Source: Marsupella aquatica (taxonomy: Eukaryota; Plantae; Marchantiophyta). From it: DNA of 64,000 bases. A model generated the notes under the pieces. It was not told the origin of the DNA. It was given only the letters and a program-made list of their open reading frames with translations, and did not search any database. Of the stretch, positions 15,801 to 53,608 are shown in pieces. Both the position numbers and the translations under genes were made by a program. Position 1 is the stretch's first letter; each line of letters starts with the position of its first letter. The stretch is taken from NCBI GenBank assembly GCA_973895155.1, contig OZ316891.1:9363875-9427874 (forward strand), written 5' to 3'.

Positions 15801-16242
15801 CACCACCCTGCTAATATTTTTTGCTAGTTTCAGAGAACAGGTTTGCAACAGTACCACATACCCTTTTGTGGGCTCCCATCCTTGTTAAAGCGTTTCTTGA
15901 ATCTCTGTATGAGTGAGTGAGGAGCTTGGAGCTTGGAGAAATGCGTCGGGATGGATCCGTTGCTATCATTGCATGCACGAGTAGAATCCAGAATTTTGTA
16001 GAGTTTTGAGCTAGTGGTGAAGGGAAGAAAATAGTCTCAAGCAGAGACAACTTTGGAATGAGTTACAGTAGCTCTTGCCCTGAACAATGCAATCCCGAGA
16101 GAGTGAGAAGAACGGAGTGGAATAGATGGGCGCGAGTAGAGAGAGGTGAGAAAAAATTTGAGAGATGAGCTGTGGAAGGAAGTTAGTAACCAGAGAACAG
16201 TCGAAGTTTTTGGAGCTTGCTCAGTGAGATAAGGGACGAAAA

Positions 16243-23856: not shown

Positions 23857-24411
23857 TACTTTTGGTCAAGAGAATTCCGGGATCCCACGACAATTCTTTT
23901 GGAACCAAAGTCACACAATCTACCATTTAATTCATTCTCCCACAATGAAACCTAACTTAAAACCTAACCGTCATCCAATGTGCCATCTTCGGACTGTCAC
24001 TAGTCGTTCAGAATTAAATCAGACTGTCCCCAATTCCCAGATGTGGAGCATGAGAAGAATTTCACCGTGATTCCTAGAGGTCTCAGTCTTACAGTAAGCG
24101 ATTCCAGTGAAGCAATTCTTCACTCTCTGATTCTCGAAAGACTTGAAGTTTCTCACCGTCAAGATTTCACCAATTCAATCAAGGAATAATTCATTATGAC
24201 GACGATACCAATGTTTGCACTCTTTCTCTACTGATTCTGATCAAATTGAAGCCAAGGGAAATAAACAATGCATGAGCTATCAGGAACTTACCCAAAGGCA
24301 TTCTTCTTCTGTCAATGTAACGCTTGGGAGGCAGAAAGAAACCTTAAACCCTAGACCCTAGACCCTGGGAGACAGATTCCCTTTCAGTAGCCCACTCCAA
24401 AGTACTGTACT

Positions 24412-24579
24412 GTAGTTTGTTCATGTATAGGATATGGGAGGTCTGGTCTGGGGTTACTAGCCTGGTAGTAAAGTAGTTTGTTCATGTATAGGATATAGGA
24501 GGTCTGGTTTGGCTTTACTAGACTGTACTATAGTTTGTTCATGTATAGGATACAGGAGGTCTGGTCTGGGGTTACTAGA
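24412..24579. repeat. Tandem repeat, ~57-61 bp x3, upstream of TYW3
   Basis: TAGTTTGTTCATGTATAGGATAyrGGAGGTCTGGTyTGG...TTACTAG repeated three times. Confidence 0.85.
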
Positions 24580-26216
24580 GTGTAACTCCCTCTCATCAGA
24601 AAGTGAAGAAAACCTGATGGACGGCCAAGGGGAATATATTCTGAGTTTTCTTTGGAGGAGGGTTCAGGCTAGAACTTCATACCAGACCTCCTTCATAGTA
24701 CCTAATTTCTTCCCGAAAGAAGGTTACTTCCAGGCAACAGATTATGTGAATAGCAAGTGTGGCCCAAAATGTTTACATGTAGGTGCCTCCTCTCAAAATG
24801 TTTACATGTAGATAACCTGTTTTCCGGACAGAATTTACTTTCCCAGTCCTCCCTTCCAAGTGTCCCCTCTTGTATTTACATACCTGTTGGCTCCTCCCTT
24901 ACTTTTCCCCCTCCCGTCCATATGTATGTTCCTAGGTATTGTGACTTAGTTACCTAGCTTACGGCCATTTGACTACACGCACTACAAGTGACCGAAGTGG
25001 CAAAATGTTTGCATTAGCTCAGTGCGCACTTAGGTTGTTTTTTTCCCAAATCTTCACTCATCATGAATTTATTTTTTGTGAGTTTGTGCGAAAATATTTT
25101 TGAGCGAAACATCATAATATTTGACACTCCAACAATTTGCTCATATTGTCGTCAGAGGCTCTCTTAGGTAGAGGAAAATGTGACAAAATTTGCTAAATTA
25201 CATATTTTGTGGAAGCCCCTGGCACAAAAGATGTGATGGAAATTTAGTTTATCAATAAGCTTATTACACACTCAAGTTTTATTTCGGGAGTCCCTTCGTA
25301 CGTCTTGGTTCCAAATAAAATGTGACTTGTAAGGGCTAAGGAGGGACTTGTAAGGGCTAAGGAGGGTTAGGTACCCATCAGGTTTCCAAATGAAAATATG
25401 ACTTGTAAGGGTTAAGTAGGTTTACCCATCTTCTGTTTTGTTTGTCATAATTATGTGCTATTGAAATGTAAAGTCGAGATTTCAACTAAGTTGTTTGATT
25501 ATTCTTTTCTCTCTTTGTCATGTTATGCAGTCCTTCGCTTTCATACTTTCCTATTCACTTTTTAAAGATTCTTTCCTCCTTGTTAACTTAAAAAGTTTAG
25601 TCAGGGTTTCCAAGATGCAAAATAAAATCATGTTCGCCCTGAAATGGAAACAGGCAGGTGGGCAACATCTGAGTGGGACCCATGGGATAGTAATAAATGA
25701 GTTCCCAGCAACCTTCAACGTGAATAGGTTGGAGGTGCAAGTAGGTTATGCCATTTGAGACAACATTGTCACCTGAGTAGGTTCTGTGTGTGTGTGAGGG
25801 GGGCAGTAGATTACGACATTCAGGACAACACTGTCACCATGCGAAGCAAGCAACTGAAACTATATGGTCACAACCTACAAGTATTTTGAAGCTTGTGACC
25901 ATGCTATTCCTGGGTGGGGTCCAGATTTGGGGTTACAGTTGACCTCGTGCGACATTGGGGGCCACACTATCATCACAGTCATATAGCTTTGGTTGTGAGG
26001 AAATAACCAGGGAGATGACCAAACATATGTGGTCACATCAGGGATTCAGGCTGAACAATATGGTCCTGACAACATCGTGTACAAGACATTGTGGGGCCAT
26101 TTTTTATAATATGGTTTCAGACAATACGGTTTGGGGCCATTTTCAGGCCCCCTCACTTTGTTCAACTGAACTAAAGTTCAGCCAATAACTACAATATGTA
26201 GTTGCAAAGGAGCATG

Positions 26217-32407: not shown

Positions 32408-32904
32408 AGCTTTTTGTTAACCTGTCCCCCAAACTACTCGATATGATTAAAGTGCCCACCCAAGCAAAATTAATTATTAACCCGTCCCCCATTTTGTATT
32501 GAGGTCAGTATTAACTCATATATGAGTTTCCTTGCCATGTGACAATTCACTATTGGCTAGCCTTAACAAGCCACCACCACCCTCGCCCCCCCTTCCCCAT
32601 TGCAAGGCACAATTGTAGGTCCAGGAGGGGCAAAAATATGTTATTTTTTGCTCCATGCTCCCCTCACAAAACCCCACACTTTTGGCCCTCATTTTTACTC
32701 AGGAAAATAATAGCTGGGAAGGGGGGACAACGGGGTGACAGCGGATTATGGCTAGCCAATACTAACATGCTACGTGGCAACTGGAACCCGTATACGAGTT
32801 AATACTGACTCAAATAAAAAATTAAAAGTGGATTGATAATTAATTTTGTTTGGGGGAGCATGTTAGTAATATGAGTACTTTGGTGAACAGGTTAGTAAAA
32901 TGCT
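32408..32904. mobile_element. Fold-back / MITE-like element with ~150-bp imperfect terminal inverted repeats
   Basis: Left arm TAACCTGTCCCCCAAACTACTC...CAAAATTAATTAT...GTCAGTATTAACTCATATATGAG...TATTGGCTAGCC pairs with right arm GGCTAGCCAATA...CCCGTATACGAGTTAATACTGAC...ATAATTAATTTTG...GAGTACTTTGGTGAACAGGTTA. No clear TSD. Confidence 0.7.
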
Positions 32905-33116
32905 TAAAAGCATGAAGCCTACAATATTAAGCTACAAAAGGTCCTAGTTTTGGGGTCAGCTGTAATTCTTTGTTTCTTTGCTTCTTGGCCTCTCTTGGCC
33001 CTTTGGTTGTCCCCCCTTATTGGGTCTTTTGCCTAGGATCATGGTTGGGCGCCCTTTGTTTTAGGCAGTTAAAAAATATTATAAAGGGCACAAATATTAT
33101 AGAGGGCACACTCATG

Positions 33117-33394
33117 ACCCTGCATCAAATCTACACCGCATTAATGTGCTCCAACTATAGCGGCACCCCGTACGCTGCCTATCACGACATCCAATGCGGC
33201 CTGCCCGTTCCCCCGACCAGACGTCGGTTTATGTTCTACCATTTCTTCTTTGACTGCCTCAATTGCGTTTCCGTCCATCATCCGTCCATTTTGAATTCGG
33301 GCGGGAGCGCGAACCGAGTCCACGATCTTGCCAACACTACCCTCCCCTACCCCGTCTTGACAGTCAAGTGTTGTCGAGAGCACAGAAGTGCTTG
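33117..33394 (+). repeat. MULE left terminal inverted repeat (~280 bp)
   Basis: Reverse complement of ~47332-47648 with scattered substitutions (e.g. AAATCTACACCGCATTAATG / CATTAATGCGGTGTAGATTT; GACAGTCAAGTGTTGTCGAGAGCAC / GTGCTCTCGACAACACTTGACTGTC). Confidence 0.92.
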
Positions 33395-35474
33395 ACATGG
33401 CATGCAATGGTGAGACATTGTAGGGTGGTCCGCTTTGTTTCGTCGTCATAAATAGTCAATGTTCTGTTGCTGATCGTGCCTTGCTGAACCTGTGATGCTG
33501 TGCGTTTTGATGAGTATAATCATCAATGTTTTGCCGCTGATCGATTGTGCGTTCTTCAACCTGTTTCTATGGTGGGCAGAATACAACTTTGAGGTAATTG
33601 TGCGGTTCATTGCTAGTAACTTGAGGCGCTCTGTACTGTACAAGCAACTTTTGGATGTCTCCCACCTTGCAATCAGTCGCGGAACTCGACTACCTTAACA
33701 CTTAGCTCCGGCACCGCTGACTCCGACGCCGAGCTCCCTTATGGTCCAGGCCTGAATAGGCCATCCGAGGAGGACTTAGCATGGGGAGACTTGTGGGCAA
33801 TGAGACGTGGCAAGGGGCCAAGCTGGGGACACATAATAAGGACTTGGACTAGCCTATGGCTGGTCGGGTCAAGGGGAAATGGGTCGGGCTCAAGGATGAC
33901 CGTCCGGACCGTCAGATGGACTTTGAGTTCTGAGGGCTTGGGACTGAGCTCCTCTTGGGCCCAAGGCCAATGGAGTTGACGCCATTGGCAATGGACGCTC
34001 GGGGCGCAAGTTGTGGCCCGATCCGGGTTGGGCCAATCGGGGGCCCCGAGCGGCGATCAGACGGTCTGAGGGCCTAGGCATGAGCACTGGGTCGGCCCGG
34101 TCACAACGGACTAAGGCACTTTGCTTGCGGATGCCTATCAGGAAAGTTATGGGCGTTGCCAGTTGGTGGCCGCCCATTATGCACAATGGGATCCGGGTTG
34201 GGGGCCAAATGTTTAGGGACCAAAGCTGGTCCAGGGGTGGCAGGTCTCCAGAAGCATATATGAGGGGAGTGGTGTCTCCCTGGGGGCTAAGGCCGAACCA
34301 AAGTCGTGAGCCGCGGCGGTCGCGACACTAAGGGAAACCGCCAAACAAAAATGGTGATATCTTCCCAACGGGAAGTCCGTTGGAGGACTTCTTGGGTACG
34401 TTGGAAAGCTCTTGAGCAGGGCTACGCCCTTGTGAGCTCAGATGGGTCCAGGGGTGCCATGGGTTCTTGTGGTTTGCGGGTGTTAGCTCGTCCGCTTGCC
34501 AAATCCTGCCGAACAGCAACCAAGCCGCGTTCAGCCTCCCAAGGGAACTTGCGTTGGGGAGACAAGGCCAAGTAGGTATGGAGGCTGAGTCCCAAGGGCG
34601 CTCGGTCTCTAGACCATCAGTGGGGCAAACCGGGAGCGGTTGTTAGAGTTGGGGCCATTCTGGTCCCAACGTGTTGAGACAAGCTTGGGACAAACTTTAG
34701 GACAAGCTATGCTATTTGGGCCATGAGCATGTCCTAGGGTCAGGGCGGTCAGTTGGTGATAGATAGGTACGAGGGGGAACCCGGGCCGCACCCAAGGAAG
34801 GAGTTGTTCTGGATGAATAGTGGGCGTGGGTTATGGTTTTGGCTTATGGCGTCAGGAGGACCTATCACTGACCTATTTACCAACGTCTGTTGAGCTTGAG
34901 TTAGGATGCTAGACTGGGCGAGTTCTAGATCCGGAGGGGTTACTCACCGAGGTGCTTGGTTGTTTGTGCAGACAGTGAGGACCGTTGAGTGGCGGTCGTG
35001 TAGGTGAGCAAGTGCGGTTTTGTATGAGAGTGGCTGCAGGTGGTGCTAGAGGCACTTGGATGCTTGCTCGAGGTATTCCGTGGAGGCGTTTGGGCACCAA
35101 GGGCACTTAGGCGCAAGTGCTAGGATTGGTGAGGGCGCTGGGTGGCGAGGTCCACCACTCAATCTACATCTTCATTGTGGGGGGTTTTGGGCTTTACAAA
35201 CGGTGTTGCGTTTTTTCCTCATTTGCAAATAGTGTGTCATTGTTTAGGTTCTATCACGTTTTTCCTTCATTTGGTTTCGAAACTCAAGCTTGACAACTGA
35301 CTCGGACATCCTGCTCAAGTAAGCAATCTCATTCAGTTTATCGCTATTGCATGTCATACGAGTACTTTGTCTCTAGTGTTACCAAATCGATTGTTTCAAT
35401 GTTGCTCCTAACCCTTATTTCAGATTGACAGTTTATGTTCTACTCATTGCTGCAAATGTACTGTCATGTAGGGA

Positions 35475-38399
35475 ATGGAGCCAAATCGGCAATGTGTTGT
35501 AGGGCCTAGGAAGGGGAAGCCTCCTGTTCCACCGGAGGCAGAATGGGAGAAGTTCCCAATAGCCAAGATCCACAAACATTGCATGCGAGCTAAAAATCCA
35601 TCCCATAGAAGAACATTAGGGTCAGGTTTTCTTTGCAAAATCATGACACTCAGATGACTCATGTCAACACTTTGTGAAGAAGCATGCTTTTTGGATCACA
35701 TGCGATCAGTACATCGCATGAATCCATAACCGTGTTCGGTTGGTCGTCCCAAAATGGCAGCACGCTAGAGGTTTGTAGCTTTGATTCAATCATTCTGCGT
35801 TCATTTCATAGACAACTACTAGTTCATGTTCTGGTATGGATTGATTAATTACTCCTGGTTTATGTTTTGCTATTCAAACAATGGTTTGTGTGTGCCTACA
35901 GGAATCAACTGAGTACGGCAGCCATGATTCACAACAAAGAGTTAACTTTGGGTTCCTACCCTGCACGAGTGTGGAAACTCAAGCGACAATGAATGTCATG
36001 GTTGCTACGATGGGTGAATGGCCTCAAGTTAGCTCATGAAGGGGATGAGACAACATGGGTTCTGAGTAAGGTCACAGAGCGGTACAATGATTGGAGGAAA
36101 TCTCAAGAGTTCACCAGCATGCTCACCGCTGTGAAATCAAACATTCTTGCATTCTGGGAAAATCATAGTCCCAACATTGATCTAGTGGAGATGCGAGCTA
36201 GGGTATGTGCAATGCAGTTTATGTTGTGTTGATATCGGGTAAGTTCATTGTAGTTTATGTTGTGTCGGTACCGGGTACTTGAAATCTAGTTTATGTTGTG
36301 TCGAGAAGGGTATGTGAATTGTACTTTATGTTGTATTGCTATAGTAATGCAGTTTTGGTAGTAAGTTTTGACATATGAAATGCATCATGGTCATAGGCAA
36401 TGCTTCCAAAAGATGTGGACGAATGGAGAAGTGACAATGGGATGCCCCCAAGTGGATCTTGCCCACTCTGATTTGAACGCTGACAAGATTGTATTTAAGA
36501 AGCGTGTCATTTTTTAGAAGGAGCCACCTCCAAAAACTAGAGCAAAGGGTAAGGGTAAGGGTAAGGCCCCATGTAAGAAGCCTGCTAAGAATTCTGAAAC
36601 ATAGAAGCAGACATGGCCAAGAAGCAGTCAAGGGCCAGGAAGGCTCAAACGCAAGTTCAACAGAGACAGGGCTTGAGGTCTAGGACCAAGGCCACACTGG
36701 GAAGGAACACAATTGAAAGCCAGGTTAGGCACATTCATATGCTATCTATTGTGGCATTGATGTTCCAAGCAAATTAATGTTCTTTCCTTTGTATTATGGA
36801 ATGCGACTCTTTCTACTTGTGTGCAGGCAAAAGCTGTAGTTCCTGACAGATCGTCTACATGGAAGAGAAGGCGTGTACCAAACACCCAAGAACCAACTAA
36901 GAAAAAGCAAAAAAACATCAACAACACTTTCCATGTACCTCACATTGTCTTTGCCTTCATTGCAACACCTCCTATCCTATTGCAATTTTGGTGTTTGTCA
37001 CATGTTCTAGACAGACGACAATGACAACATAGATGAAGCTTCAAAAGAAAGGGCTGGAGATAGGGCAGACATTGATGGGGCCACAAAAGATGGGGCAGAG
37101 GATGCCACTAGTGAGCATGCTTCACAAGAACAGGTTGGACGGATGATGATGATGGGGCCACAGAAGACAAGGCAAATTATGATGGGGAGACATAAGAGGG
37201 GCCCAAGATGACAAGGCAGAGGATGATGGGGCCACAGAAGATGGGGCCCAACAAGATGGGTCCACAAAAGATGGGGCCCAACATGATGGGTCCACAAAAG
37301 ATGGGGATGAAGATTATGGGCCACAGAAGACGAGGCAGAGGATGATGGTGTTACAGGAGATGGGTCCACAGAAGACGGGGCAAAGGATGATGGTGTCATA
37401 GGAGATGGGCCCACAGAAGATGGGGCCCGAGAAGAAGCTTCACAACAAGTATCTTCAGAACAAGACAGCCAAGAAGCCATAGAAGAGGGTAAATTTGCAG
37501 AGGAACAGGAAGGAAAAGAAGGAGAACCTACAGATGAAACTCGTCTTGAGGCATATGTCAAATGCTTGTCGGAAATTAAGGTGAGGCTATAGTCTGTGTT
37601 CTTTCCTGTTCAATGCCATTTGCTCTTGTTATATTCCCAAATCCATTGTCATGCGTTATGTTCTTGCAGGGAAGGGAAAAGCAACAACACACTAGCCGAG
37701 CAAAGGTGTCTGGCCAAAAAAAACAGGCAAAGAAGACAAAGAAGGTGTCTTTCCTCAATGAAGAGCACACCAGTGCACCCCTACCTGGTCCAAAATCATG
37801 GACTAAGATGAGATGGACCCAAGGATTGGGGAAGATCATAACACATCACGTTGACAAATTGACCAAAATTATTCCTCCCTATTCAGACTTAGTTCTGGAT
37901 GGGGTTACTATTCCATTCATTGACACCTATAATGTTGGAGGCAAATATAGTAGGAACACCTGGTTGCCTTTACATGCTGCAAGGCGCAAGATCTTCAGCA
38001 GCAGGGAATATTTGGCATTGGGTTTATCACACAAGGTAATCACCCTTCGGTTGTAACAATCTGCTCAACACTTAATTGATGTTTTGCAAATGTCCTAGCC
38101 GTATGTGTAATGGTTTATGTTTTGTGGTGCAGAAAAATTGTTGTGCCTTTTCGACCTATTCATGAAGATCATCCATGGCCGGGGTACCTTTTTGTGTGGG
38201 TCGGCCCGGATGGCATCCCAATTCTACCAAGGCATGTCGATTGCATACTCGCAAATCGCCATACCCCTCATCGATCTTCAAATTAAGAAAGCCTTGGGAC
38301 TTGTCCAAGCATTGGGGCTCAGATGAAGTTTGCAAGTTCCCTCTCCTGAAATTGGATCTTGTGTCCACAATAGCCTTCGTGGAAGCGTTTCCTATGTAA
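35475..38399 (+). pseudogene. MULE accessory gene of unknown function (multi-exon, disrupted)
   Basis: Exon-like blocks bounded by GT/AG: ~35475-35770 (MEPNRQ...FLCKI...DHMRSVH), ~35902-36202, ~36398-36723 (basic, KGKGKGK), ~36827-36933 (KRRR, KKKQK NLS-like), ~37011-37580 (acidic DGATED repeats), ~37670-38035, ~38133-38399 (Cys/His/Trp-containing C-terminus). Several in-frame stops and frameshifts. Confidence 0.65.
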
Positions 38400-39704
38400 A
38401 GTGAACTGCCAGTTGGCAACTCTCAATACAAAGAATTTTCCATATAATGGTGTAATGGTTGATTGTCCCCTCCCATAGTTTGAGAAAATGATGTTTCACA
38501 CTTGTACAGATTGTTATGAATGGTAGCCAAAATTGTGTGTTCGCCAACGCACTTGTCATGCCTTGAACAATAATAAAGTCAACCTATCTTGAACAAGAGC
38601 TGTATCCTTTATGTTTTGACACACCAGTATATTTCTGACGAGGGCAGGTTGATGTTCTATTTACAACCTTTAATGGTTATGCAACCGACATCTCCAAACG
38701 CGTGCAAGTCATGGTTTATGTTCTGTCATGAACATACTTGGGTTTATGTTCTGTCATGGTTTATGTACATAGTGGTTTATGTTCTGTCATGAACATACTT
38801 GGGAGCCTTGGTTTGTGAAAACTCTGAACAACATGTAGGCAAACTCTTGTGTGCTATAAGTAGTTTATCCCCTACCTAGAAACAAAGTCATTATGAGTTT
38901 TGTGTACTTTTGACCGAGTTATGGTTGATGTTTTGTCCATCTCTCACATATTATCTATAACACAAGACTCATTATCAATGTTTTGCCACACACATATATA
39001 CAAGGGCTACAACAAAGGGGTATGTTATTATATTATTCATCATCTTCCAAGAGAGGTACAACATTCAGATCAATATTGACATTCATGTCAATATCCCTAC
39101 CACCCCCTCGAAGATGAATAACACGGTTTGGAACTACTGGCAAGGACAAATTTGTAGTCCTTCGCCGCCGCTTGCCTTCCTGATATTCTGATCTTATCCT
39201 ACATAGATGTTGTCTATTAGATTCCCTAGTTACTTTACGCTTTGAAGGCACTGCACATGGCACCAAGCGTTCATCATATTGTATAGATGGTGCCTGAGTT
39301 TGCTGCCCTCTCTTGCCCCCATGGTAAATATCTATAACCCCTAAGCGATGCTTAGATGTCAGCCCTATAGGCCTTACAAATGCATCTGCAAGACCTATAT
39401 TGGGCTTCCCTGATCGAAAGCACTTTGATTTGTTGTTGAGCTTTCAGTTTGGTGAGTGTGACTTGTGATGCCAGGAATGCTTGTTCTGTGAGGTAGTCAT
39501 CTCCTTCAACAATTGCCAACTGCTGTTCAAAAATGTGGATTAAGTCTGCCCTCATAGTCGGCTCTCTATTCTGAAAAGCTACAGTAGGGTGTTGTAAAAT
39601 CTGAATCATAGACAATTATAGTAAGATGCTACTAAACATAAACAAGAATACTTGCAACAAACATTGATAGAACATAAACATAAGCATATACATAGTAAAC
39701 AAAG

Positions 39705-39994
39705 GTGCAGAACATAAACTTAAACAAACGCCATAAACCCTGAACATGTGCAGAACATAAACTTAAACAAATGTTGTAAACCCTGAACATCATGTGCAGA
39801 ACATAAACTTAAACAAATGCCGTAAACCCTGAACATGTGTAGAACATAAACTTAAACAAACGCCGTAAACCCTGAACATGTGCTGAATATAAACTTAAAC
39901 AAACTATGTAAACTTAAACAAAGAGAGATTTGCAGAACATAAACTTAAACAAACTTTGTAAACTTAAACAAAGAGAGATTTGCAGAACATGAAC
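39705..39994. repeat. Intronic tandem array (~43-bp then 50-bp units), about one AACATRAAC motif per unit
   Basis: GTGCAGAACATAAACTTAAACAAAyG..rTAAACCCTGAACAT x4, then two 50-bp variant units. Confidence 0.9.
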
Positions 39995-41360
39995 CTGTTC
40001 AGGTTGTTGGTAAATGTCTGTGTCCTCATGGACTCCGGTTGGTTGTCCTCCTTTCGGCTCTGTTTCTTCATGTTGAAGCAGTTCCAAATGGTCAATGCCA
40101 CCCATCAAAGTACCAAACCTGGACCCTAATTGTTGTACTAGAACACCTCCATCGAAGCCTCTAAATAAGAGAGCCTTGATCTGATGTTTACACATATTTC
40201 CCTCATCCGCCCATTTACAATCACAAGAAGGAAAGTTTGAGAATATATTCTGAACAATGTGCTCCTTCCCATCAGGCTTGCCACTTCTTACTATTGCTTG
40301 GTTGGGCAGGCTTGGATCAGGAAAATAGACTTTGTGGTATTTCATGGCATGCATGGCCTTGTGGAGGCTATTCAGGACAACCTCTTCCTTTTTGTAATTG
40401 ATAATTCTCCCCCTTGCTTTGCACCAAAGCTGGTACCAAAAGAAAGGAAGCATAACCTGGAACAAAGAAGTGACAACCCTGTCTAGACGCAGAGCTCCAA
40501 TGGACCCAATATTCCTCTTGATCATCTTCTTGAATGTTAAATGCCAAGCTTCAATTGCACCATTTGTATTCTGGTTGGCTCGAGGCATGTCTCAAACAGC
40601 CCTCATCCACTTTGCTGTGATTCCACAAATGCATAAAAACAATAATTAGTTGTAATCATGAGAAAACTCCAAGAAATATGCTTTACTCATTGCAAGGACA
40701 AATGAGTAGGAGGTCAGCAGAACGTGAACCTGTTTTGTGCATCCAAGTGTCTTCAAAATATGCTAGGAATCGTTGTTCCATGTGGTACTTTGCTTGGAAG
40801 GATCGCCACTTAACTTGCATGTCTTCCTCAGTATTGGCGTACATGGATCCCCTAGATCATCATTCATATCCAGAAGCTTGGTTCTATTTGGTACAATCTT
40901 GATCAAATTCTCCTTCCAAGCTCTGTATACAGAAACACGTGAGTGGGTTGGGCAGAACATAAACTTCATACGGCTAGTTACAAATGTGGTAACATTACTT
41001 GCAACACAAAATGTTTTCAATGTGGGAAAACATACCATCGAACATGCCAACTGCAAAAATAAATGGGGATATTGGGAAAGACAACTTTCAATGCGCTGAC
41101 TTCAGCTTGAGCACAGTCAATAATGAAGCAGCTAGGACTCCAATCAGGTTTTTGCGCCAACGCTGTATCCTTTATTGCCTTCAAAAAAGTAGCAATGTGC
41201 TCAGCTGATTCAGACTACTGGATGCACCATGCTATGGGTAATCCCATCTGGTGTTGATCAAAAGCAACGAGCGTGAAGAAAGGGAACTGCAACCGCACTG
41301 GGGTTAGAAAGGCGGAACATGAACTAGGAGATAAATTAAGTCAACTACATCGTGTAGTGA

Positions 41361-41890
41361 CATGGGCAGAACATGAACTATAATACTAGAAACAAGATAT
41401 ATGAAGAGCCAAACATGAACTACAAGACAAAAAATGAAATAGGTCACATGGGCACAACATGAACTATAATACTAGAAACAAAATATATGAAGAGCAAAAC
41501 ATGAACTACAAGACAGAAAATGAAATAGGTCACATGGGCAGAACATGAACTATAATACTCGAAACAAAATATATGAAGAGCAAAACATGAACTACAAGAC
41601 AGCAAATGAAATAGGTCACATGGGCAGAACATCAACTACAAAATATATGAAGAGCAGAACATCAACTACAAGACAAAAAATGAAATAGGTCTTATGAACA
41701 AAACATGAACTATAACACAAGGGATAGACACAACAAACATATGAAGAGGGCAGAACATGAACTACAACCCAGACACAAAATGAAGTCAATTGCATGGTGA
41801 AAAAGGTGTGATGGGCAGAACATGAACCATAATTGAAGGAACAAACACAAGAAAACATATGAAGAGGGCAAAATATGAACTATAAGACAT
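41361..41890. repeat. Intronic tandem array (86-bp unit, two AACATGAAC motifs per unit)
   Basis: Units start CATGGGCA at 41361, 41447, 41533 and 41619, then degenerate copies to ~41890. Confidence 0.9.
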
Positions 41891-43356
41891 GGAATGTAAT
41901 GAAATGGACATCCTGAGGAGATGAAATGCTAATTACATACCCCATATTTATTAGTTGCAAACGTACTATCTAACGCCAACACTGATCCATGAGATAGGGT
42001 GATCATCTGCGCTCTTTGCCAAGGTGACTGCAATGAAAGTATGAAATCCTGCTTTGGTGGGCCCGCCATGTACTCTTGTGAGAGAAGCACTCTCTCAGGA
42101 TACATCCCCATCCATTTGCGTATCGATGCCTGGTCATTGTCAGACCATAGCCAGGTCTCCTTGTCAACTTTTCGTTTGAGTTTTCGAAGATCTTGTTTAG
42201 AAACCAGGTCGTCTCTCCCATCAAAAGTTAGTGTCACACCAGGATCAGTGGTATTGTGTCCACAATCATCACCATCTCTTTCAAACTGCGATTGACAGTG
42301 GAGGTCATAAATATCAAGGACGGACCATCCTGCCCTCAATAAGTCCTCAAGGTGCTTCTGGACCTCTCTGGTCAACCATGGAGCAATGGTGCATTTTGGT
42401 CCCCAAGAGGGAGGCCCCAATTGTGGATCCCAATGGCCATGCACAATGTCCCCTCTCTGATTACAATGCTTTCTGCAATTGAAACACAGACAGAACATAA
42501 ACCACTACATACAAATGTGATGGTAGAGAGTAAAAACAACTATGTTGCACAAAATTAGGCAGAACCTAAACTTTAGCACATAAATTCATGTGAACATGGA
42601 CCCTGAAAGAGACTTGTCCGAGTAAGCATAATTAGACAGAATGCATCCTTGCCTGTTTATGTAGGAGAGCTGAACAACATCAGGGTTGGCTTTCATCCTC
42701 TTCGCAATGAAGTGACACCGACATCCTCGCTTGACATGGTTGTTGAATGCATTCTTACGTAGTCTAGGTCTACTCCCAACTCCTGATGTTGGTTTTGTTC
42801 CAGGAAGTGGAGGAATAGCTACGCTACGCATGTCTTCCTCTTGTGGGCCATAGGAACACCAAAAGATGGTATATTCTATCCAATCAGTGTTATTTGAATT
42901 AGATTTTCTTGAGGTTCTAATATGAAATGAACTCTCAAATTTTGGATCCTTTCTGCCCTCGCCATCTCTAAAATCAGTGAGACGGTTCCATGGAATGAGA
43001 GCTTGGTCATATGGGCTCCAAGCAATGTGTAGCGACGAAAATTTCCCAGCCGGTGGAATCTGTACGTACTCCCATGTTTCATGAATCATTGGATTACGCA
43101 AAGGCTCCCAACAATTATCCTGCCACGACGGTGGTAGAACATAAACTACAAGACAAATATTTCGGGTACAAAACTCACACCGCACGATTGGGTACAAAGC
43201 GCGTGCATTTGCATTGCAAGGGCAATTGAAAAAAAACGACGTGTTTGCACAGTAGTACCACCAACACAAAGACAAAGAGCACATGAACTGACAAATAACA
43301 GAAACATTTAGGGGGAAATGAAATCGGTGGAAATGAATAGCGTCATAACATGATAT

Positions 43357-43700
43357 TGTTGAGCATAGACGACATTCGTAACGGCAAGCCCATGAACCAT
43401 CCAACGCACAATAGTCGACACAAAGAGATACGTGGTTCACCTCCACATGAGGCTACGTCCACGGGAACACACAAGAGCTTTACTGCACTCTAGGCCGACC
43501 GGCCATAGCAAGCATCCACAGCACAAGCTCTCCCTATCTCTCAACTAGCTCCGTAACAATGAGCCTAAGTTCCACCAGGGTCTGACATCAGCCCTGGCTA
43601 TATACACAACAGCACTACCGCTAACATTAGCTAAGTCCTAACCTGAGTTAGACTAACTGGGGTTAGCTCATGAGTCACAAGACTAGAGCAATATCTAACA
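43357..43700 (-). repeat. Copia 3' LTR (344 bp)
   Basis: TGTTGAGCATAG...ATATCTAACA, adjacent to the PPT. Confidence 0.95.
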
Positions 43701-43907
43701 AACTCCCCCTTGACTCTTGTCTTGGGGATTGGACTAAATGCAACCATATGGAATCCTCAGCGGGAAGTTCTAGACAATCACCAAACCAGGTCTCCCCCTA
43801 AAAACCACAAGGATTAACTAAGGGTTAACTAGAACTAAGCCGTAGCCTAATAGGAATGAGTAATCCATATACAAATAGTCAAACATTGCTAAATAACTCT
43901 ACATGCA

Positions 43908-46791
43908 CTACAACTGCAAAACTTGCAAAGTAGCACGGTGTCTTGAGAAACTCTCCAAAGGAATCACTTTGGTAAAGGCATCAGCGGGATTGAGCTTTCC
44001 ATCAATCTTGACTAGCTCAAAAGTTTTATCAGACACTGCTTGCCTGATAAAATGGTACCTGATATCAATGTGCTTCACCCTGCTATCCATCACTTGGTTA
44101 GCAGCCAAGTGAAGAGCACTCTGACTATCACAGTTTAGAGTCATTTTGCCATGCTCTAAACCCATCTCCGCGATCAACTTGTCCAACCAAATTGCTTCCT
44201 TTGCAGCTTCTGCTGCTGCAACATACTCTGCTTCTGTAGTAGACTGAGATATGCACTTCTGCAAGGTAGATTTCCAACTGATACATCCTCCTCCAAGAGT
44301 GTATACAAACCCAGTTGTAGACCTCCTTGTATCCAGACAGCCTCCATAGTCAGAATCTACATAGCCAACTAACGTTCTATCTGATCTGTTATCAAATAGT
44401 AATCCATAGTCCTGTGTACCCTTCAGATACCTGAGAATCCACTTCACAGCTTCCCAATGTACCTTCCCTGGATTTGACATGAATCTGCTAACCTTGCCCA
44501 TCGCTAGGGCCAAGTCAGGCCTAGTACAAGTCATCAAATACATCAGACTGCCTACTGCCTTCTCATAAGGTATCTTAGCCATCAGACCTTTCTCCACAGC
44601 ATCCGTAGGAGAGAAAGCCGATGATAACTTAAAATGTGAAGCTAAAGGAATACTCACTGGCTTACAGTTTTCCATGTTGAATCGTGCAAGTACTTTCCTC
44701 GCATACTGGCCTTGACTCAAGCACAACTGTCCAGTATCAGAGTTCCTAAAAATCTCCATCCCTAAGATCCTTTTGGCCTTACCAAGATCCTTCATCCTGA
44801 ATTCAACACTCAATTTTGCCTTGAGACTATCAACCTCAGATTGATCTTTAGCCACAATCAGCATGTCATCCACATAGATCACCAGAATGATGAAACCAAA
44901 TACATCATTCTTGACTGATTTCGTACACACACAAGGATCATACACCATCCTTGTAAAACCTTGAGCAAGCATGAAATCATCAAACCGCTTGTTCCACTGT
45001 TTGGGAGACTGCTTCAATCCATACAAGGACTTGAGCAATCTGCAAACTAAGCTCTCTTGGCCCTTCTTCATAAAGCCTACTGGCTGTCGCATGAAGATCA
45101 TCTCTTCCAAGTTGCCATAGAGAAAAGCAGTAACAACATCCATCTGATCCATCACCAAACCAAAAAACACAATAAGCTGACACAAGATCCGAATTGTGGA
45201 ATACTTAGCCACCGGTGAAAAGACCTCATTGTAGTCCACTCATTTCTCCTGAGTGAACCCCTTGGCAACAAGCCTTGCCTTGTAGATCTTATCTCCACCC
45301 TCTGAAGGACTGTCCTTCAACTTGTAAATCCACTTGCTGTCCACCACTTGCTGACCTCTTGGAAGCTCCACCAGCTCCCATGTCTTGTTGTCACTCAAAG
45401 ATTGCAACTCCCTCTGCATTGCTGCATTCCACTCATACTTCTGCTCTGAAGCACAAGCCTCACTGTACGAAGAAGGCTCTCCTTCTTCCAAGATCAAAGC
45501 CATATCATCATCATCAGGTGCAATGTCAATGTCATCTAGCTTAGATGAGTCTGCCCATTGACCATACCTGGTAGGAGCTCTAGTAGAACGACTGGAAGTT
45601 CTTCTAGTAGATGACTCAGGCTGATCTGTTGCTGCTGCTGGTTGAATTTGAGGTACCCTAGCAACAATCTGCTCCTCTTATTCCATCACAGGAACCAGCT
45701 CCAAGCCCGGAGCTTCTCCACCTCTCCTGTCATGAACAACATCATGACTAATCTCCCCCTCAACCGGGTCCGGGATGGGAGATTTCCCCTTGTCAGTATG
45801 GGAGTCCTGAGAACTCTCCCCCTCCTTTGATGATCTGGACTCATTAAAGGACACATCTCTACTAACAATTAGTTTACAGGTTACTGGATCCCATAACCTA
45901 TAACCCTTCACACCTTTCTGATAGCCAAGGAAAATGCACTTCTTCGACTTGGACTCCAGCTTGGATCGAAGCTGGGAAGGTGTAAGCACATAAGCATCAC
46001 ATCCAAAAATCCTCAGATGTGAGTAATCTGCTGGACGCCCGTACCTCATTTCAAATGGCGTCTTGAATCCAATAGAACTGGATGGAGAAAAATTTACCAG
46101 ATAAGCTGCAGTGTTGACAGCTTCAGCCCAAAACTCATGTGGTAAGCATGATTGACTCAACATACTCCTCGAGCGGTCCAATAGTGTTCGGTTGAGTCTC
46201 TCAGAAACACCATTCTGCTGAGGAGTATAGCTTGTTGTGAGATGGCGGGTAATCCCCTGCTCCTTACAATACATTCCAAATTCCCCGGAACTGTATTCAC
46301 CGCCATTATCCGATCGTAGATATCTCACCTTATTACCAGTCTGATTTTCAACTTGGGCTTTCCACTCCTTAAAAGTGGCAAAAACATCAGACTTACTGTG
46401 TAGAAAATATATCCACACATACCTTGAGTAATTGTCTATGAATGTGACATAGTATAACCGTCCAGAATGTGAGGGAGTAGGGGCTGGACCCCACACATCA
46501 CTATGTACATACTCAAGTACCTCCTTGCTGGTGTGAGTTCCAACTCCGAAGGGTTTCCTGTGCTGCTTCCCTAGCACACAGTGCTCACAAAATTCCAACT
46601 TACAAGATTGCAAATTAGAAAGTAATCCTTTCTTCTGAAGAATAACCAAACCTTTTTCACTCATGTGGCCCAAACGGAAGTGCCACAGCCGGGCCGTCTC
46701 CTCATGAGATAAGGTTACATTGGCTTCATCACAAACTACACTGCCCTCCAAAACGTATAGATTGTTATGTCTCTTTCCCTTCAATACAACT
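43908..46791 (-). pseudogene. Copia pol (GAG-pre-integrase, integrase, RT, RNase H) in one frame with two nonsense codons
   Basis: LWHFRLGHMSEKG...CEHCVLGKQHR, VHSDVWGP, LRSDNGGEY, PQQNGVSER, YKARLVAKGFTQ, LYGLKQSPKQW, IYVDDMLI, GYVDSDYGG, KHIDIRYHFIR. Stops TAA 45678-45680 and TGA 45240-45242; the segment between the listed ORFs is open. Confidence 0.95.
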
Positions 46792-47173
46792 TGTTGAGCA
46801 TAGACGACATTCGTAACGGCATACCCATGAACCATCCAACGCACAATAGTCGACACAGAGAGATACGTGGTTCACCTCCACATGAGGCTACGTCCACGGG
46901 AACACACAAGAGCTTTACTGCACTCTAGGCCGACCGGCCATAGCAAGCATCCACAGCACAAGCTCTCCCTATCTCTCAACTAGCTCCGTAACAATGAGCC
47001 TAAGTTCCATCTCTCAACTAGCTCCGTAACAATGAGCCTAAGTTCCACCAGGGTCTGGCATCAGCCCTGGCTATATACACAACAGCACTACCGCTAACAT
47101 TAGCTAAGTCCTAACCTGAGTTAGACTAACTGGGGTTAGCTCATGAGTCACAAGACTAGAGCAATATCTAACA
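46792..47173 (-). repeat. Copia 5' LTR (382 bp, includes 38-bp tandem duplication 46971-47046)
   Basis: Matches 43357-43700 apart from about 4 substitutions (by eye) and the duplicated ATCTCTCAACTAGCTCCGTAACAATGAGCCTAAGTTCC. Confidence 0.95.
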
Positions 47174-47331
47174 GATATCAGGTGGCAATGGCAGAATCAC
47201 ACGCACCCTTTGCTTACAATGATGATCACGTTAAAAGTAGTGGCATCATAATCCTGACACTTCAGAATGAAGCACTCGTGAAGAATGAATCTACCATCAT
47301 TCTACCGTGAGCTCGTGTACAGGCGGTCCGG

Positions 47332-47648
47332 AAGCGCTTCAGTGCTCTCGACAACACTTGACTGTCGAGACGGGGCAGGGGTGGGTAGCGTTGGCAGGGT
47401 CGTGGACTCGGTTTGTGCTCCTGCCCGAATTCAGAACGGACGGACAACGGAAGGAAACACAATTGAGGCAGTCGAAGGAGAAATGGTAGAAAACAATCCA
47501 ACGTCTGGTCAGGGGAATGGGTAGGTCGCATTGGATTTCGTGACGAGCATTATATTGGGTGCCGCTAGTATATTGGGTGCCGCTAGTATATTGGGTGCCG
47601 CTATAGTTTGAGCGCATTAATGCGGTGTAGATTTAACGCAAGCAGGGT
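47332..47648 (-). repeat. MULE right terminal inverted repeat, with an 18-bp triplication (47551-47603)
   Basis: Inverted copy of 33117-33394; TATATTGGGTGCCGCTAG occurs three times in tandem. Confidence 0.92.
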
Positions 47649-49098
47649 CACTCATGCAAAAGCACCCGGGTTTGGCCAAAGCTAGCGCGTGACTGGGCGA
47701 CAGAAACAGCGTGATCAGCTGAGAGCCACCCACAAACTAATCATCAATACAGTAATCATTACGGGAGTAGTGCGTGCTCTGTCCTCCGAGCGACCCAGCA
47801 TTCCAGGATGCCGTGGAATCGTGGATGGATTCGTTCTTCAATGTCCAGGAGATAACTACGAGGAGAGAGTACAGCTGAACCAGAGTTGTTGTCGATTCTC
47901 TCCTCTCCTCTGCCCTCCTCACAATAGGCCTTCCCTTCCACCATCGTCATCATCACTGCTGTCGTCACTCTCGTCAACCCGATCCCCACCCTACCACATG
48001 GTTTCCCCTTCTTCGTCTGCCTCCTCTCTGCTTCTCTTCTCTCGTATGCTTTTGGTAAAGTTCAGCCCCTTCCTCCCCTTGCGTCGTCCAAAGGAAGGAA
48101 GGATTGAAGGAGAGGAGAGGAGAGGAGAGGAGAGCTTGAGGGAATTGTTCTTCGGGAATTCTGTGAGCCATACATTCTCAACAGACAGCCTCTGCTCTGC
48201 TGTGCGAGCAAGGAAAGGTTGAAACTACTGTAGGAACCCTCAAATCTGCTGGCCGAGCAAGGAAGAAGAACTAGAGAAGGTAGGAACTGGGAACCCTTAA
48301 AATCTGCTGTCAGGGAAAGGAAGGAAGAACCTGAGGAGGTAGGAACTAGGTACTACGAACCATTGTTCGGCGCATCCATTCATTGACATGGGCGGAAGAA
48401 TGAACGAGCGGGATTTCTTTCTAGCAAGAGGGCAGGTGTGACCCAGAGGCGGTGGCTTCCTCGCTTCACCACACTGCAGGTTCGCGGGCCAAGCTGAGGC
48501 CGCCTGCACGGGCCGTCCGATGAGGTTAGAATGTTTCAATTAAAACTAAAATCATACATATTTCTGACGGAGACGGTGACTTCGTTCTGAATAATTATAG
48601 CTCCAGAAAAGAAGTATCCTTGTGGGTCAATCTGAAAGAAGCTCAGGTTTGCTTGCCGCTATTGGGTGGAGGCATCATTCCTCCCTGTTGCAACGAACGT
48701 GCATGGGTGGTGCTGTTCGTCGGGGAGAGAGAAAGTGGGTCTGGAAGGGGACGGGAGGCATGTGGAGTACTCAAAGTGTAACTTGTCCTACTGGCCAAAG
48801 CTCCCCTTCGATCGCCAGCGACCTTTCTTTTGGGTAATCTTACCGCATGGTGACTACCTGAGCTGAAGTCCTCGCTGGTTGTATGCATGTGGTCTAGTTA
48901 CTGTGTGTGCTCTGTATAATTCGTATTTGACGCTTTCAAATAGGAGAGGTGCCACCACGGCTGGATAGTCTGGTCGTTGAGACAGGTATACCGGTCAATT
49001 AGGCAAGGAGAGAAGGGAAAAGCGGTGAGACAAAGGTGAGCAGGAGGACCCTGATGGTTTACTGCACAAGGATCGAATTGGAGTAATTTCGGGGAGCG

Positions 49099-52000
49099 AT
49101 GGTCAAAGGAAGGACAGATGATGGGAGCCAACTGCAGGAGCCCCTTCTCCCTGATGGCCTGGGCAGCTTTAGCTCCCAGCCCTCGCCGAGTCCTCCTTCC
49201 AGACAGCATACCTTGGACTTGGAATCTAACAACGTAGACGGAATTCCGGCCGATTCAAACCAAAATCATGGTGGTGTATCAGATAAGCCACGGCTCGAGA
49301 GCCAGGGGTCGAGATATTTCTCGTCTCTGTCAGGCCAGTGGAAATTCAATCCCTCGCAGCATGGGCAGGAAAACTTATCATCAGCAAAGGACGTCCAGAA
49401 GGATAGGGCAAGACGCGCCCAAAGCAAGAGACGTCTGCGAAATCCTATCCAGAAGAAGTCCTTTGTGAGGCGAGCAGCTCATACTGCAGCTAATGAGCCG
49501 GTGTATTTTTTCAAGAATTTGATGTGGGGAGTAGTCTTGTGGCCAAAGTGGGCGTGGGAGGCAATTCGTTCCCAAAAGACTTTGACCATTTTGTCTCTAA
49601 AATCAGGTTGGAGCGCTGATCCTTCCACAACCCATCCAATTCTGAATCCTCTGTATGTCGATCATCTTCAGGGGAAATAGACCCTTCTTTTCCTCCCTGT
49701 ACAATTAAAATGTAGTTGCGATGTGCTTGGTCTTTAATGACATTTTAATAACCTTGCAAATTTAGCTTCTGGCGTCACAGGTCTCTTCTATAATTATTAG
49801 GTACTCATCATTGGCTGATGATTGAGGCCCACAATGTCCACAAGGAATGAAGGGTCGGTTGCAGTGTTTCGCAACATGCAGCTTTCTTGACCCTGATCGT
49901 TCTCAGCGCGCAATAGTCAATTCCCAATTCTCGACACTTCGGCTTGAATTATCACACGAACTACTTTTGCAAATCGTCGGAGAATCAATTTGCTTGCTTC
50001 GTTGTACAAACTACGAGTCATGACGAGTGAGTCGCATAGTAATGCAGGAGCAAAACCTTCAATTCTCAACTCGACAAGGAATTAGGTCTCTATTGATTGG
50101 GACAACTCACTCGCTAACCCTAGTGAGTCGATCATGGAGCAGTAGTCAATTTCAACACTTGGACTTAACTTTTGACACAAACTAAGTTCGCAAAGCCGAT
50201 TTATTTTCGAGAGGAAGCACAAAGAGGGCTATCGTTTTCAACCTGCCACTCGCGGAGACCATGTGCGATAATTGCTGCTCATGGACATGATGCTTGTCAT
50301 TTTATTTAATTGGGCTTGTGTAGTTGATGGGAAGACCTTCTTTCTCTAGGCATGGGATTGCCTTATTACAAGTCGTGCTCTTCTAGATCGAGTTTCTTCA
50401 ACGTGCCCAAAATCTTGTCCTTGCTCGTACTGTCCCTAAGCCTGAACTAAATTGTCGTCAATTTGTGGCCGCATTCATGTAGTGGGGTTCTTGGTCTTGC
50501 AGGAGTCGGTATTACCGTCATGCAATTCTTTTGCTATTTATGTATTTTTTTTCGGTTCCTGATGCTGAAAAACTATAGAGAAGACCATAGCAGGTCATCT
50601 AACATCCTTCCATGTGCTCAGGAATTGCTGCTGGTATTGCTTCCATCATATGTGTTCTCGACCTTCCAGCGCCATATGATGAACTTTCGATTATGGCTAT
50701 TTGGGCCATTGTTACGATTGATATTCTTGCTGAGTCAAATATTGGGCTTTCCTTAAGCAAGGGTGTGAATCGAGTGGCGGGAACTTTCTCAGCTGGAGCT
50801 TTGGCTGTCATTTTAACTCAACTTGGACCTGATGTACCAGAAAGCATATATCCTTACTATGTGGTACAACTCTGTCCTCTGAAATGTTTGCTTTGTTGTG
50901 AAGGATCGTCCTTGTACATTTGGGTTGTTTAGGTTGATCACATGACCGATTTCCTTTGCAAGCAGCAACTGTAGCATCACATATACCTGTGGAAGTTTAG
51001 CATACCATTTCAGTGTCTCCGGATAACCTTGAACATCGTCAGAGCGAAATTCATAACCTGCAGGTGTTACGCACTGTCCATGAAGAGATAGTATCGATCA
51101 TGGACGGAGTTTCAAGTCTCAAAGTTCTGTTGCAAAATGCTAATGCAGATTGCTGTCAAGACATGGCGAAGTTCTATTGCCTTTTGATTGTCCACTTCTT
51201 AGATATAAGATGACACTGACATATTTCGTTTGATGATTTGCAGGTATTTTGGGTCACATTCGGAGGTTTCGTGTTCCGGTTTTTGAAAGGAATACCTCCT
51301 CTAAAAGATCAGTGGGGTTATGCTTTTACTGTAGCAACCTTATCCTTTCACATTCTCCTCATTGGCACCTATCAGGAGCCGGAGAATTTGACGCTACCGC
51401 TAATGAGATTTTTAATGATATTATTTGGATTCTTCTTGTCTTCGCTTGTAAATGTAGTTTTCGAGCCAGTATACGCGGGAGATGCACTCCACAAACTGGT
51501 TGCAAAGAATTTTGACACAGCGGCGGAAGTTCTTTCCAGGTTAGACTCGGTTCCTCTCTCTATGTGGTCCCTTACAGGAGGATGTCGTTCTGCGTGGATC
51601 TTGCTTGTGGTTATCCCAAATGTTCAAGCTGGGTTTGACAATGTATCCACCTCTTGGAATCTGTATTGAGGTTGCTTTCCTTATTCGCGTGCTCCAAATT
51701 TTATAGATTCAGATGATTCATTGGATCTTTGTCTTTTTGCAATCCCTGCAGATGTGTGAAAGAGTACAGTAACTCCACTATGCTAGATCATGTTCCGGAC
51801 ATCCTCTGTGGGCGATCAGAGGATGATAAAATTCACCAAAGCTATCATGAAGTGGTTATGTCAGATTCAGACGTCGACAAGCTGGTATGCAATTGAACTT
51901 TTGAGGAGTTAGTTGACCTTAAGACGTGCGTGAGACTAGAAGAGGATGGTTTTCCTAAGCAGATTTGTTGGAGCTGGAGCAAATTATTAGACGCTTTTCT

Positions 52001-53608
52001 ATTGAGTTTGGAAGTAGCTCTATCTAGATTAGCATCGTTCAGGTTGATCTTGCTGAAGCAAAATAATTAGGTTGGTGTTCAAGGGAGTAAACGCAGAGAA
52101 GGACCGGGAAACCCATGCATTTGATGTATGATGGCTAACCTGTCTGGAAAAATTAGTAGTGAACTGGTTGCTGTTTTTTAACCTTTGTAGAAATGCGCTG
52201 ATCATTTCGTTTTGCAGCTAGGTGCCGTGACATGGGAGCCTTGTCATGGGCGCTTCTTTAGGGGTTATCCATGGCATCTCTATGATGATATAACAGATTA
52301 TCTGCGTTATACATTGTACGATGTTATTGCTCTGGACTCCTGCTTGAGGGCAAGCATACAAGCACCAAAATTTCTGCGGGATATATTCTCTGAGGTTTTT
52401 AACATTTCTGTTCGACTGTCATTTAAATCATTCGATGCAGCGTGGTCTAAAGATTTGGTGTTCATTAGGAACTAGAATGCTGATGAGGTTCTATGGTGTC
52501 CGAGGTCCTCGAGTATTCTTCACTTTGTTAAGTTCTTGAACCTTGATGTAAGGATGTTGTCATATCTCTAGTGGATTTCTTTGATCTAGGACAACTGGAG
52601 ACGCTTTCAACCAGGACTCGTATGATTATTAAAGCCTGGATTATCGGACAAACGCAGGAAATGACTGTCATTGCCGAGGAGTGTGCGATGGTGCTTCATA
52701 CTTTGGCTGATAGTATGCGAAATATGAAGAAGTTTTCTTCGGAGGATATTTTGTGTCGAGCTGAAGAAGCAGCACTTGCACTTCAGAACAAGATCTACAT
52801 TAACACTCACCTCTTGTTGGGTAGCGGTGCTATGGAGTCTCCCAGATACCCTTTTTATGTTGCCTCGAGTCATGCAGATGGTGATCAATGGGGTGTTGCC
52901 GGAAACCCAGTAACTGACAATAGAGGCCAAGAAGAAGACCATTCCAAAGTGGGTCCAAATGATGTGCTTGATAACTGTTCAGACTACTCCGGTCACTCCA
53001 GCAAATCTGGAAAGCATTTTAGGTTCAATTCTGACGAGAATGATGCAAGTCGTCCCAGCTTCCACAACTTTTCAGCACCTGTGCCAGTTGCGCAGCAGCA
53101 GGACTTTGATCAGCTGGAATCTAGCATTGGCAGAAACGTCCAGGACAATTGTGGTTCTGATATCAGAGAGATCGAGCAGACTTTAAACTTATCCCCCGGA
53201 CAACCTGGGCATGAACTGAATCAGAGGTTGGGGGAGATAGATGATCATGGCAAGCAAGGGGCGTCAGTCGAGAGAGGTAAACATGGCTTCCCTCTTCATG
53301 ACCTTCGAGTGCAGACCGGAGCTTCCCAATTTGACCCGGCAGATGGGACCACCAGTTTTGCGAGCAAGATACCAGGGCGACCATCTGCTGGATGGAAGCA
53401 AAATTTTATGCAGAGAAGGTCGAGCTTAGGTCATAACTGGGAAGGCACCCTAGAAAGAATATCTGCTTTGTCACTTGTAAAATTTGCTTCTTTATTGATT
53501 GAAGTAGTTGCAAAAATGAAGTTTATTGTAATTTCTGTAGATGAGCTATGCCAAGCCGCGAGATTTCAAGAGATTAGTACAGAGGAGAACACAGAGAACG
53601 TCCAGTAG
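49099..53608 (+). CDS. ALMT: Aluminium-activated malate transporter / anion channel (ALMT family), 6 coding exons
   Basis: Exons 49099-49606, 50622-50863, 51244-51539, 51752-51884, 52219-52394, 52658-53608 with GT-AG junctions that keep frame. Motifs LSLKSGIA, AIWAIVTI, GLSLSKGVNRVAGT, PVYAGDALHKLVAKNF, WEPCHGRFFRGYPW and LSLVKFASLLIEVVA. Confidence 0.93.

Follow-up and report, generated by a model that had tools for sequence, protein, structure and literature searches.

Arabidopsis VANDAL21 and VANDAL6 are Mutator-like elements (MULEs) whose accessory proteins, VANC21 and VANC6, act on internal non-coding DNA, and in the passages of PMC5735166 covered here the target motifs are confined to non-coding sequence, occur as C- and T-types, and lie in arrays that gain and lose units, while the VANC proteins carry DUF1985 and DUF287 domains and tandem peptide repeats. 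As described in the part of PMC6446971 covered, MULEs have target-site duplications (TSDs) of 8-11 bp, and the terminal inverted repeats (TIRs) of VANDALs are absent or short and degenerate. The TnpA protein of Spm and the AtMu1 transposase act at element termini, and TnpA-like proteins appear restricted to flowering plants, according to the portion of bioRxiv 10.64898/2026.08.24.746577 consulted. Here we describe a MULE of the liverwort Marsupella aquatica, located at 33117-47648 of a 64,000-nucleotide window (contig OZ316891.1, positions 9,363,875 to 9,427,874, forward strand), in which one short word, GTTYATGTT, fills the non-coding DNA of two convergent genes, a transposase gene and an orphan accessory gene whose product is a candidate binder of the word.

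GTTYATGTT occurs exactly 34 times in the window, compared with 1.72 +/- 1.19 in 100 dinucleotide shuffles (maximum 5), and 32 of these copies lie inside the MULE; the two others, at 11305 (plus strand) and 31485 (minus strand), are the only exact copies in the remaining 54.8 kb, which include several host genes. Of these 32, the 11 in the left half of the element (33227-38775) read on the plus strand and the 21 in the right half (39635-43138) on the minus strand, every coordinate listed in the first-pass annotation of this DNA proving exact. The word ranks first in a k-mer scan of the 9.2 kb of sequence that belong to the MULE itself, nested insertions left out. Masking the tandem arrays leaves GTTTATGTT as the highest-ranking 9-mer (11 copies versus 0.12 expected, -log10 p 17.7, none on the opposite strand), compared with -log10 p values of at most 6.0 for the best 9-mers of eight control blocks of the window. 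At a score of at least 14, a position weight matrix (PWM) built from 19 non-redundant copies, which as training copies match by construction, finds 13 sites in the left half, all plus, 25 in the right half, all minus, and one outside the element. The annotated 9-mer is thus confirmed, but the contexts of the copies lengthen it to a 12-13-mer, RGTTYATGTTCTG. Where the CTG tail (positions +10 to +12 of 19 copies) varies, it mostly reads CTA (4 copies) or TTG (2), as deamination of a methylated CHG site would produce.

The TIRs of the element are about 280 bp long, the left at 33117-33393 (plus, ~277 bp) and the right at 47332-47648 (minus), and are 84% complementary, with 37 differences over 236 aligned bases. 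An identical 8-mer, CACTCATG, flanks them at 33109-33116 and 47649-47656 (plus strand), so that the ends have the TIRs and the 8-11-bp TSD of a MULE; because the right TIR and its matching TSD lie there, the right border previously drawn at 43300 was too short. Two convergent genes between long TIRs constitute a layout of the MuDR type. One copy of the motif lies in the left TIR, at 33227, 110 bp from the element end, as annotated, but the homologous site in the right TIR differs in three of the nine bases. The other 31 of the 32 copies are internal and are densest 3-6 kb inside the element, unlike the motifs of terminal activators, which lie at the termini and are kept in both TIRs. The right TIR, and not the left, also carries a perfect 18-bp tandem of 2.9 copies (47551-47603) containing TAGCGGCACCC, possibly an amplification of a transposase site.

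Introns were predicted from GT/GC-AG ends, frame continuity and, for the transposase, partly from alignment with a related protein of Calypogeia fissa (P0001, below), giving 13 introns that include two 5'-untranslated region (UTR) introns whose starts are undefined. Nine of the 13 contain the exact motif (simulation mean 1.2, maximum 5 in 5000), and 28 exact copies fall in 2,532 intron bases as against none in 4,834 coding bases; the annotated confinement of the copies to introns and UTR or intergenic DNA is thereby borne out, and the enrichment of a short motif in non-coding DNA alone is a feature of the VANC type. On the plus strand, single copies lie in the predicted 5'-UTR intron of the accessory gene (35431-35439, 41 nt before the acceptor) and in accessory intron 6 (38113-38121, 20 nt before the acceptor), and two lie in accessory intron 1 (35771-35901), at 35822-35866. 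On the minus strand, single copies lie in the predicted transposase 5'-UTR intron (43138-43146, 27 nt before the acceptor), in transposase intron 1 (42494-42502, 30 nt before the acceptor, with two near copies upstream) and in transposase intron 3 (40956-40964, 42 nt before the acceptor). Transposase intron 1 (42473-42652) is a GC-AG intron. A tenth intron site is found in transposase intron 4 (40615-40729, minus), whose donor, which fits the P0001 sequence, is a one-mismatch copy that is restored to the exact word in family contigs of all four public runs analyzed (40724 G>A). Three accessory introns lack a copy and hold only 12-mers with 3-4 mismatches.

The first-pass annotation did not mention how the copies are placed relative to the splice sites. 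Only 20-45 nt separate the final copy from the 3' splice site in 8 of the 9 motif-bearing introns (null mean 2.6, P 3e-4, for a range picked in knowledge of the data), and the GT of the motif opens transposase introns 4 and 5. The branch consensus is YTNAY, which the motif core TTYAT fits, and a YTNAY core stands 18-45 nt before the acceptor, the position of a branch site, in 8 of the 9; in 4 introns the final 55 nt contain no YTNAY other than the TTTAT of the motif, and in another four a canonical CTNAY lies between the motif and the acceptor. Because three introns of the host ALMT gene in the window lack the motif (0/3, maximum PWM score 4.4), the word is not a general host branch site, and these introns, with the two exact copies in the 54.8 kb outside the element, give no indication that it is common in host introns.

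The same 9-mer has been amplified in four tandem arrays, with units of 36, 28, 43/50 and 86 (42+44) bp, all of which are present as the first-pass annotation had proposed. The 36-bp array occupies accessory intron 2 (36201-36334, plus; three exact copies and one near copy). The 28-bp array (38713-38803) belongs to a cluster between the genes (38607-38932, plus; three exact and four one-mismatch copies) in a region without T skew (odds 0.8), a cluster that may be a 3'-UTR intron (38648 to ~38966). The 43/50-bp array (39705-39994) lies in transposase intron 5 (39601-39994, minus; eight exact copies), which appears from its putative GT donor to start with the motif, and the 86-bp array (41360-41715) lies in transposase intron 2 (41287-41940, minus; ten exact copies). 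Compared between arrays with the motif excluded, the units show no relationship in 12 of 13 pairs, again as proposed; the remaining pair gives p=0.003. Array length differs between family copies, as seen at the joints 36277>36204, 39732>39830 and 38788>38893: one family contig goes back 74 bases in the 36-bp array, and one family variant skips 97 bases in the 43/50-bp array. Amplification in tandem repeats that vary between copies is likewise a VANC-type feature. At 39705-39975, GTT occurs three times at 6-bp spacing (GTTTAAGTTTATGTT), which suggests a modular GTT-N3 recognition pattern.

Neither gene is intact in this copy, and the contigs of the four runs hold several diverged variants of the MULE. 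Other family contigs have sense codons at two accessory stops (in loose-ended contigs) and at one transposase stop (41037), and they differ by indels at 37139 and 38320, so that two accessory frameshifts are variable. Because stops are read as sense codons and indels differ elsewhere in the family, these sequences make it very likely that the family has intact members. Depth in run X1 is ~110 for the commonest variant compared with 11-23 for single-locus contigs, which, although depth does not equal copy number, suggests several near-identical copies of the MULE.

The transposase gene (39033-43088, minus; six predicted coding exons, supported by tblastn) encodes a MULE domain (PF10551, E 1.4e-7) and a SWIM domain (PF04434, E 6e-4), the domain pair of a MULE transposase. 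Its sole match among 334 candidates is Calypogeia fissa CAM6117684.1 (P0001; 62% identity, E 1.6e-62), the 62% applying to the SWIM-bearing exon and 73% to 70 residues of the MULE domain. This match to a liverwort protein by itself points to a liverwort as the probable host. Viral contigs contain no related locus. A distant, decayed transposase was found in three near-identical metagenome contigs, each with one motif copy and no enriched word; at L003 (1300-1400 and 4800-4870), TGTTACAT is repeated before and after this distant transposase, in four copies, a number within the range of chance.

The accessory gene (35475-38402, plus; seven predicted coding exons from three-frame translation) encodes, in order, an N-terminal Cys/His region with predicted helices, a Lys-rich patch, an acidic repeat and a C-terminal domain. 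The acidic repeat consists of 14 units of 15 bp (5 amino acids) at 37225-37435, between two other regions. An HMMER search of 1.84 billion representatives with the C-terminal exon recovered two Logan homologs, both anonymous singletons (E 6e-9 and 5e-4). Each ends at WxYHTR, and so does the window exon when its frameshift is corrected. This shared end points to the C-terminal region being a real, conserved and uncharacterized domain. Word-based homolog searches returned no further relatives of the protein, and the Atlas gave no usable match for the window accessory exon; an Atlas lead to a SAM-like domain for P0006 scores 0.85, below the threshold of 0.9. Inspection by eye raised the possibility of a BED-like zinc finger (exon 1) and of a degenerate Ulp1 motif (exon 7), but neither found support from any tool.

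The cis-pattern of the motif is solid, comprising the anatomy of the element, the enrichment, the exclusion from exons, the amplification in four arrays and the differences in array length; the accessory protein is an orphan whose function is predicted from sequence. Our preferred reading, which we hold tentatively and at somewhat less than an even chance, is a VANC-like system, shaped by splicing, in which the accessory protein would recognize its own element at the DNA level and so activate it or counter its silencing. A MuDR-like element would have filled its non-coding DNA with one 12-13-bp tag, the candidate binding site of its own orphan accessory protein, which would recognize the members of its family and probably relieve them of silencing, in the way that VANC acts on VANDAL; the output, by analogy only, would be reactivation or demethylation. 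Motif density would be under selection, since unrelated units have amplified the same word and isolated copies recur across introns. The binder would be the accessory protein rather than the transposase, because the motif fills the body of the element and is not kept in both TIRs. The orientation and position of the copies would be set by splicing constraints, because the sense word is U-rich with a GT start and a YTNAY core and its antisense contains a cryptic CAG acceptor, and the copies may double as splice signals.

Several results weigh against this reading. The position bias toward the splice sites is unpredicted by DNA binding alone. The strict polarity, with 32 of 32 copies on the sense side of the nearer gene, is ruled out as independent evidence, because T-rich introns explain most of it: element introns with the motif masked favor the sense word 8:1 and host introns 7:1, and the sense-side placement of all 19 independent loci, which has a P of 2e-6 under 50:50, has a P of 0.07-0.11 once T-richness is allowed for. 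The annotated flip of orientation where the convergent genes meet is real, but mostly reflects intron composition; only the inter-gene cluster, all plus in DNA without T skew, exceeds compositional polarity. Sasaki et al. (EMBO J, 2022) reportedly describe a eudicot origin of VANC, an Ulp1 domain and a helical periodicity of motif spacing. The ~43-bp spacing previously noted in the arrays is present, but helical phasing over 17 non-redundant spacings is absent (Rayleigh p 0.37, and 0.30-0.43 for periods of 10-11, in a small sample). The ratio of observed to expected CG is 0.44 near motifs versus 0.42 in other non-coding element DNA, indicating no local protection, and the element body is depleted (0.20-0.43) compared with 1.13 for the TIRs, so that there is no sign of lasting CG protection. 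In family contigs, 1 of 18 motif bases in accessory intron 1 is variable versus 22 of 109 others (p 0.12); copies 35822 and 35858 are intact in two X1 family variants but a third alters 35822, and among the indels listed at least one contig has a 3-base insertion in copy 35858. On the side of the protein, Pfam (E <= 1 or 10) recognizes no family in any accessory piece tried, VANC domains included, these queries being short pieces from a broken copy, which lowers sensitivity; a single match at E 0.21 is attributed to chance. PDB sequences give a best E of 0.66 or above, and AlphaFold2 models of the accessory protein are unusable (pLDDT 47.6 and 57.6).

The main alternative operates at the RNA level, and the tie of the motif to splice sites makes it stronger than the weight first given to it. 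Here GUUYAUGUUCUG would be a splicing or processing element of the nascent transcripts that assists the branch site or the donor, and its reader would be an RNA-binding protein, either the accessory product, in a positive feedback on the splicing of its own and the transposase transcript, or a host factor. In its favor are the sense-side placement of every copy, the distance of the last copy from the acceptor, the two transposase introns that start with the motif, the four introns in which TTTAT is the only candidate branch core, the inter-gene copies that are all plus where composition does not require it, and the subthreshold SAM-like lead. However, a canonical CTNAY follows the motif in four other introns, 8-10 copies per intron exceed what splicing needs, and the TIR copy is probably upstream of transcription, judging from MuDR. 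Furthermore, Pfam found no RNA-binding domain in the accessory pieces, the motif is missing from the three ALMT introns, conserved RNA structure is absent from the five motif-bearing stretches analyzed (z 1.5 to -1.9), and Rfam has no matches. We regard an RNA-level signal as unlikely, though it deserves to be taken seriously. A bolder form of this idea is a self-addressed RNA switch, in which a private word at the donor or branch of nearly every intron would be read by a new element-encoded protein. We consider such a switch quite unlikely, and equally so its corollary, that splicing or export of both transcripts would depend on the product of the element; it has no counterpart among plant transposons in the literature searched.

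It is improbable that the word instead marks transposase sites, the N-terminal Cys/His region of the transposase binding the motif along the element body and aiding transpososome assembly or an AtMu1-like activation. The mirror-image polarity of the copies about the element center is that of an end-oriented site, one copy does lie in the left TIR, and the AtMu1 transposase alone activates cognate copies; yet the site in the right TIR differs in three of its nine bases whereas other blocks of the two TIRs match almost perfectly, the AtMu1 and MURA proteins have their binding sites in TIRs, and the copies are concentrated deep inside the element rather than subterminally. About equally improbable is a captured host transcription-factor site, an enhancer word of two GTT units at 6-bp distance that the element would have amplified in its introns for a host factor driving its expression in some tissue: the same enrichment would follow, and the accessory gene has no recognized DNA-binding domain, but the rest of the window shows no enrichment and a DNA enhancer by itself needs no strict polarity. 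Lastly, a neutral spread of a T-rich word through T-rich introns by slippage and ectopic conversion without selection is very improbable, for although intron composition favors the sense word, the window has many unrelated tandem arrays and the conservation test is not significant, 2.5 kb of introns with this composition should hold only ~0.09 sense copies, compared with the 28 seen, the flanks of the copies are unrelated, an outcome not produced by conversion of longer tracts, and no other array in the window has the word.

The two nested insertions are free of exact motif copies. The first, at 33675-35159, is a high-copy insert resembling a solo long terminal repeat (LTR), with AGT...ACT ends instead of TG...CA and a 5-bp TSD, CAATC; its contig depth is ~200-fold or more above that of the MULE body, and many contigs in all four runs break exactly at 33675 and 35159, leaving loose ends. 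The second, at 43357-47173 (minus), is a Ty1/Copia element of 3.8 kb with the TSD GATAT (RVT_2 E 8e-51, rve E 3e-13), which is young, its LTRs showing 3 differences over 218 bases compared; it is apparently without gag and protease, and its right LTR contains a perfect 38-bp duplication. Just left of the MULE, at 32441-32872, stand nested inverted repeats with 43- and 38-bp arms that resemble a miniature inverted-repeat transposable element. The host genes of the window include an LRR receptor-like kinase (16228-19197) and a TYW3-like gene (22960-23865), both named by eye from their translations, and the ALMT transporter (49099-53610, Pfam), whose start lies ~1.4 kb downstream of the MULE end. 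Upstream of the TYW3-like gene, a 57-bp array of three copies (24404-24584) carries GTTCATGTA, one mismatch from the motif, and arrays at 26217, 27603, 29289 and 30126 are without a near-motif word.

In the literature searched, mostly without subscription papers, no such system is reported in a liverwort or other bryophyte. If the preferred reading of DNA-level self-recognition is true, sequence-specific anti-silencing would have arisen independently across land plants, via an accessory protein unrelated to VANC, its protein and motif would add a new pair to the means of targeted epigenome editing, and the second genes of MuDR-type elements would gain a candidate function. If the RNA-level alternative is true, the element would represent a new mode of transposon self-control.

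The first-pass annotation had likened the element to VANDAL/VANC, and the comparison with Arabidopsis VANDAL21/VANC21 and VANDAL6/VANC6 (PMC5735166; PMC10398659, as covered) upholds the architectural part of that likeness: both are MULEs with an accessory gene and a C/T-type motif confined to non-coding DNA, and both have arrays that gain or lose units and an accessory protein with a tandem peptide repeat (PMC5735166). Membership in VANDAL/VANC is ruled out, because both the domain test and the TIR test fail. The accessory pieces have no match to DUF1985, DUF287, Ulp1 or any other Pfam domain, the layout is MuDR-like, and TIRs of ~280 bp contrast with the absent or short degenerate ones of VANDALs (PMC6446971, as covered). 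The motif itself is different, the accessory protein is apparently unrelated, and the word is tied to splice sites, in a liverwort element; by analogy, this element may nevertheless work like VANDAL/VANC. Spm TnpA and the AtMu1 transposase, in the source portions covered, are alike in that an element-encoded protein recognizes a cognate motif to activate its family, but they act at termini or TIRs, whereas the motif here fills the element body. Maize MuDR (PMC3440606) resembles the Marsupella element in its long TIRs (~215 bp, compared with ~280 bp in the liverwort element) and in the convergent arrangement of a transposase gene, mudrA, and an accessory gene of unclear role, mudrB, whose counterpart here lies on the plus strand; the passages of that source covered describe no motif common to all introns of MuDR, such as the one that recurs through most introns of the liverwort element.

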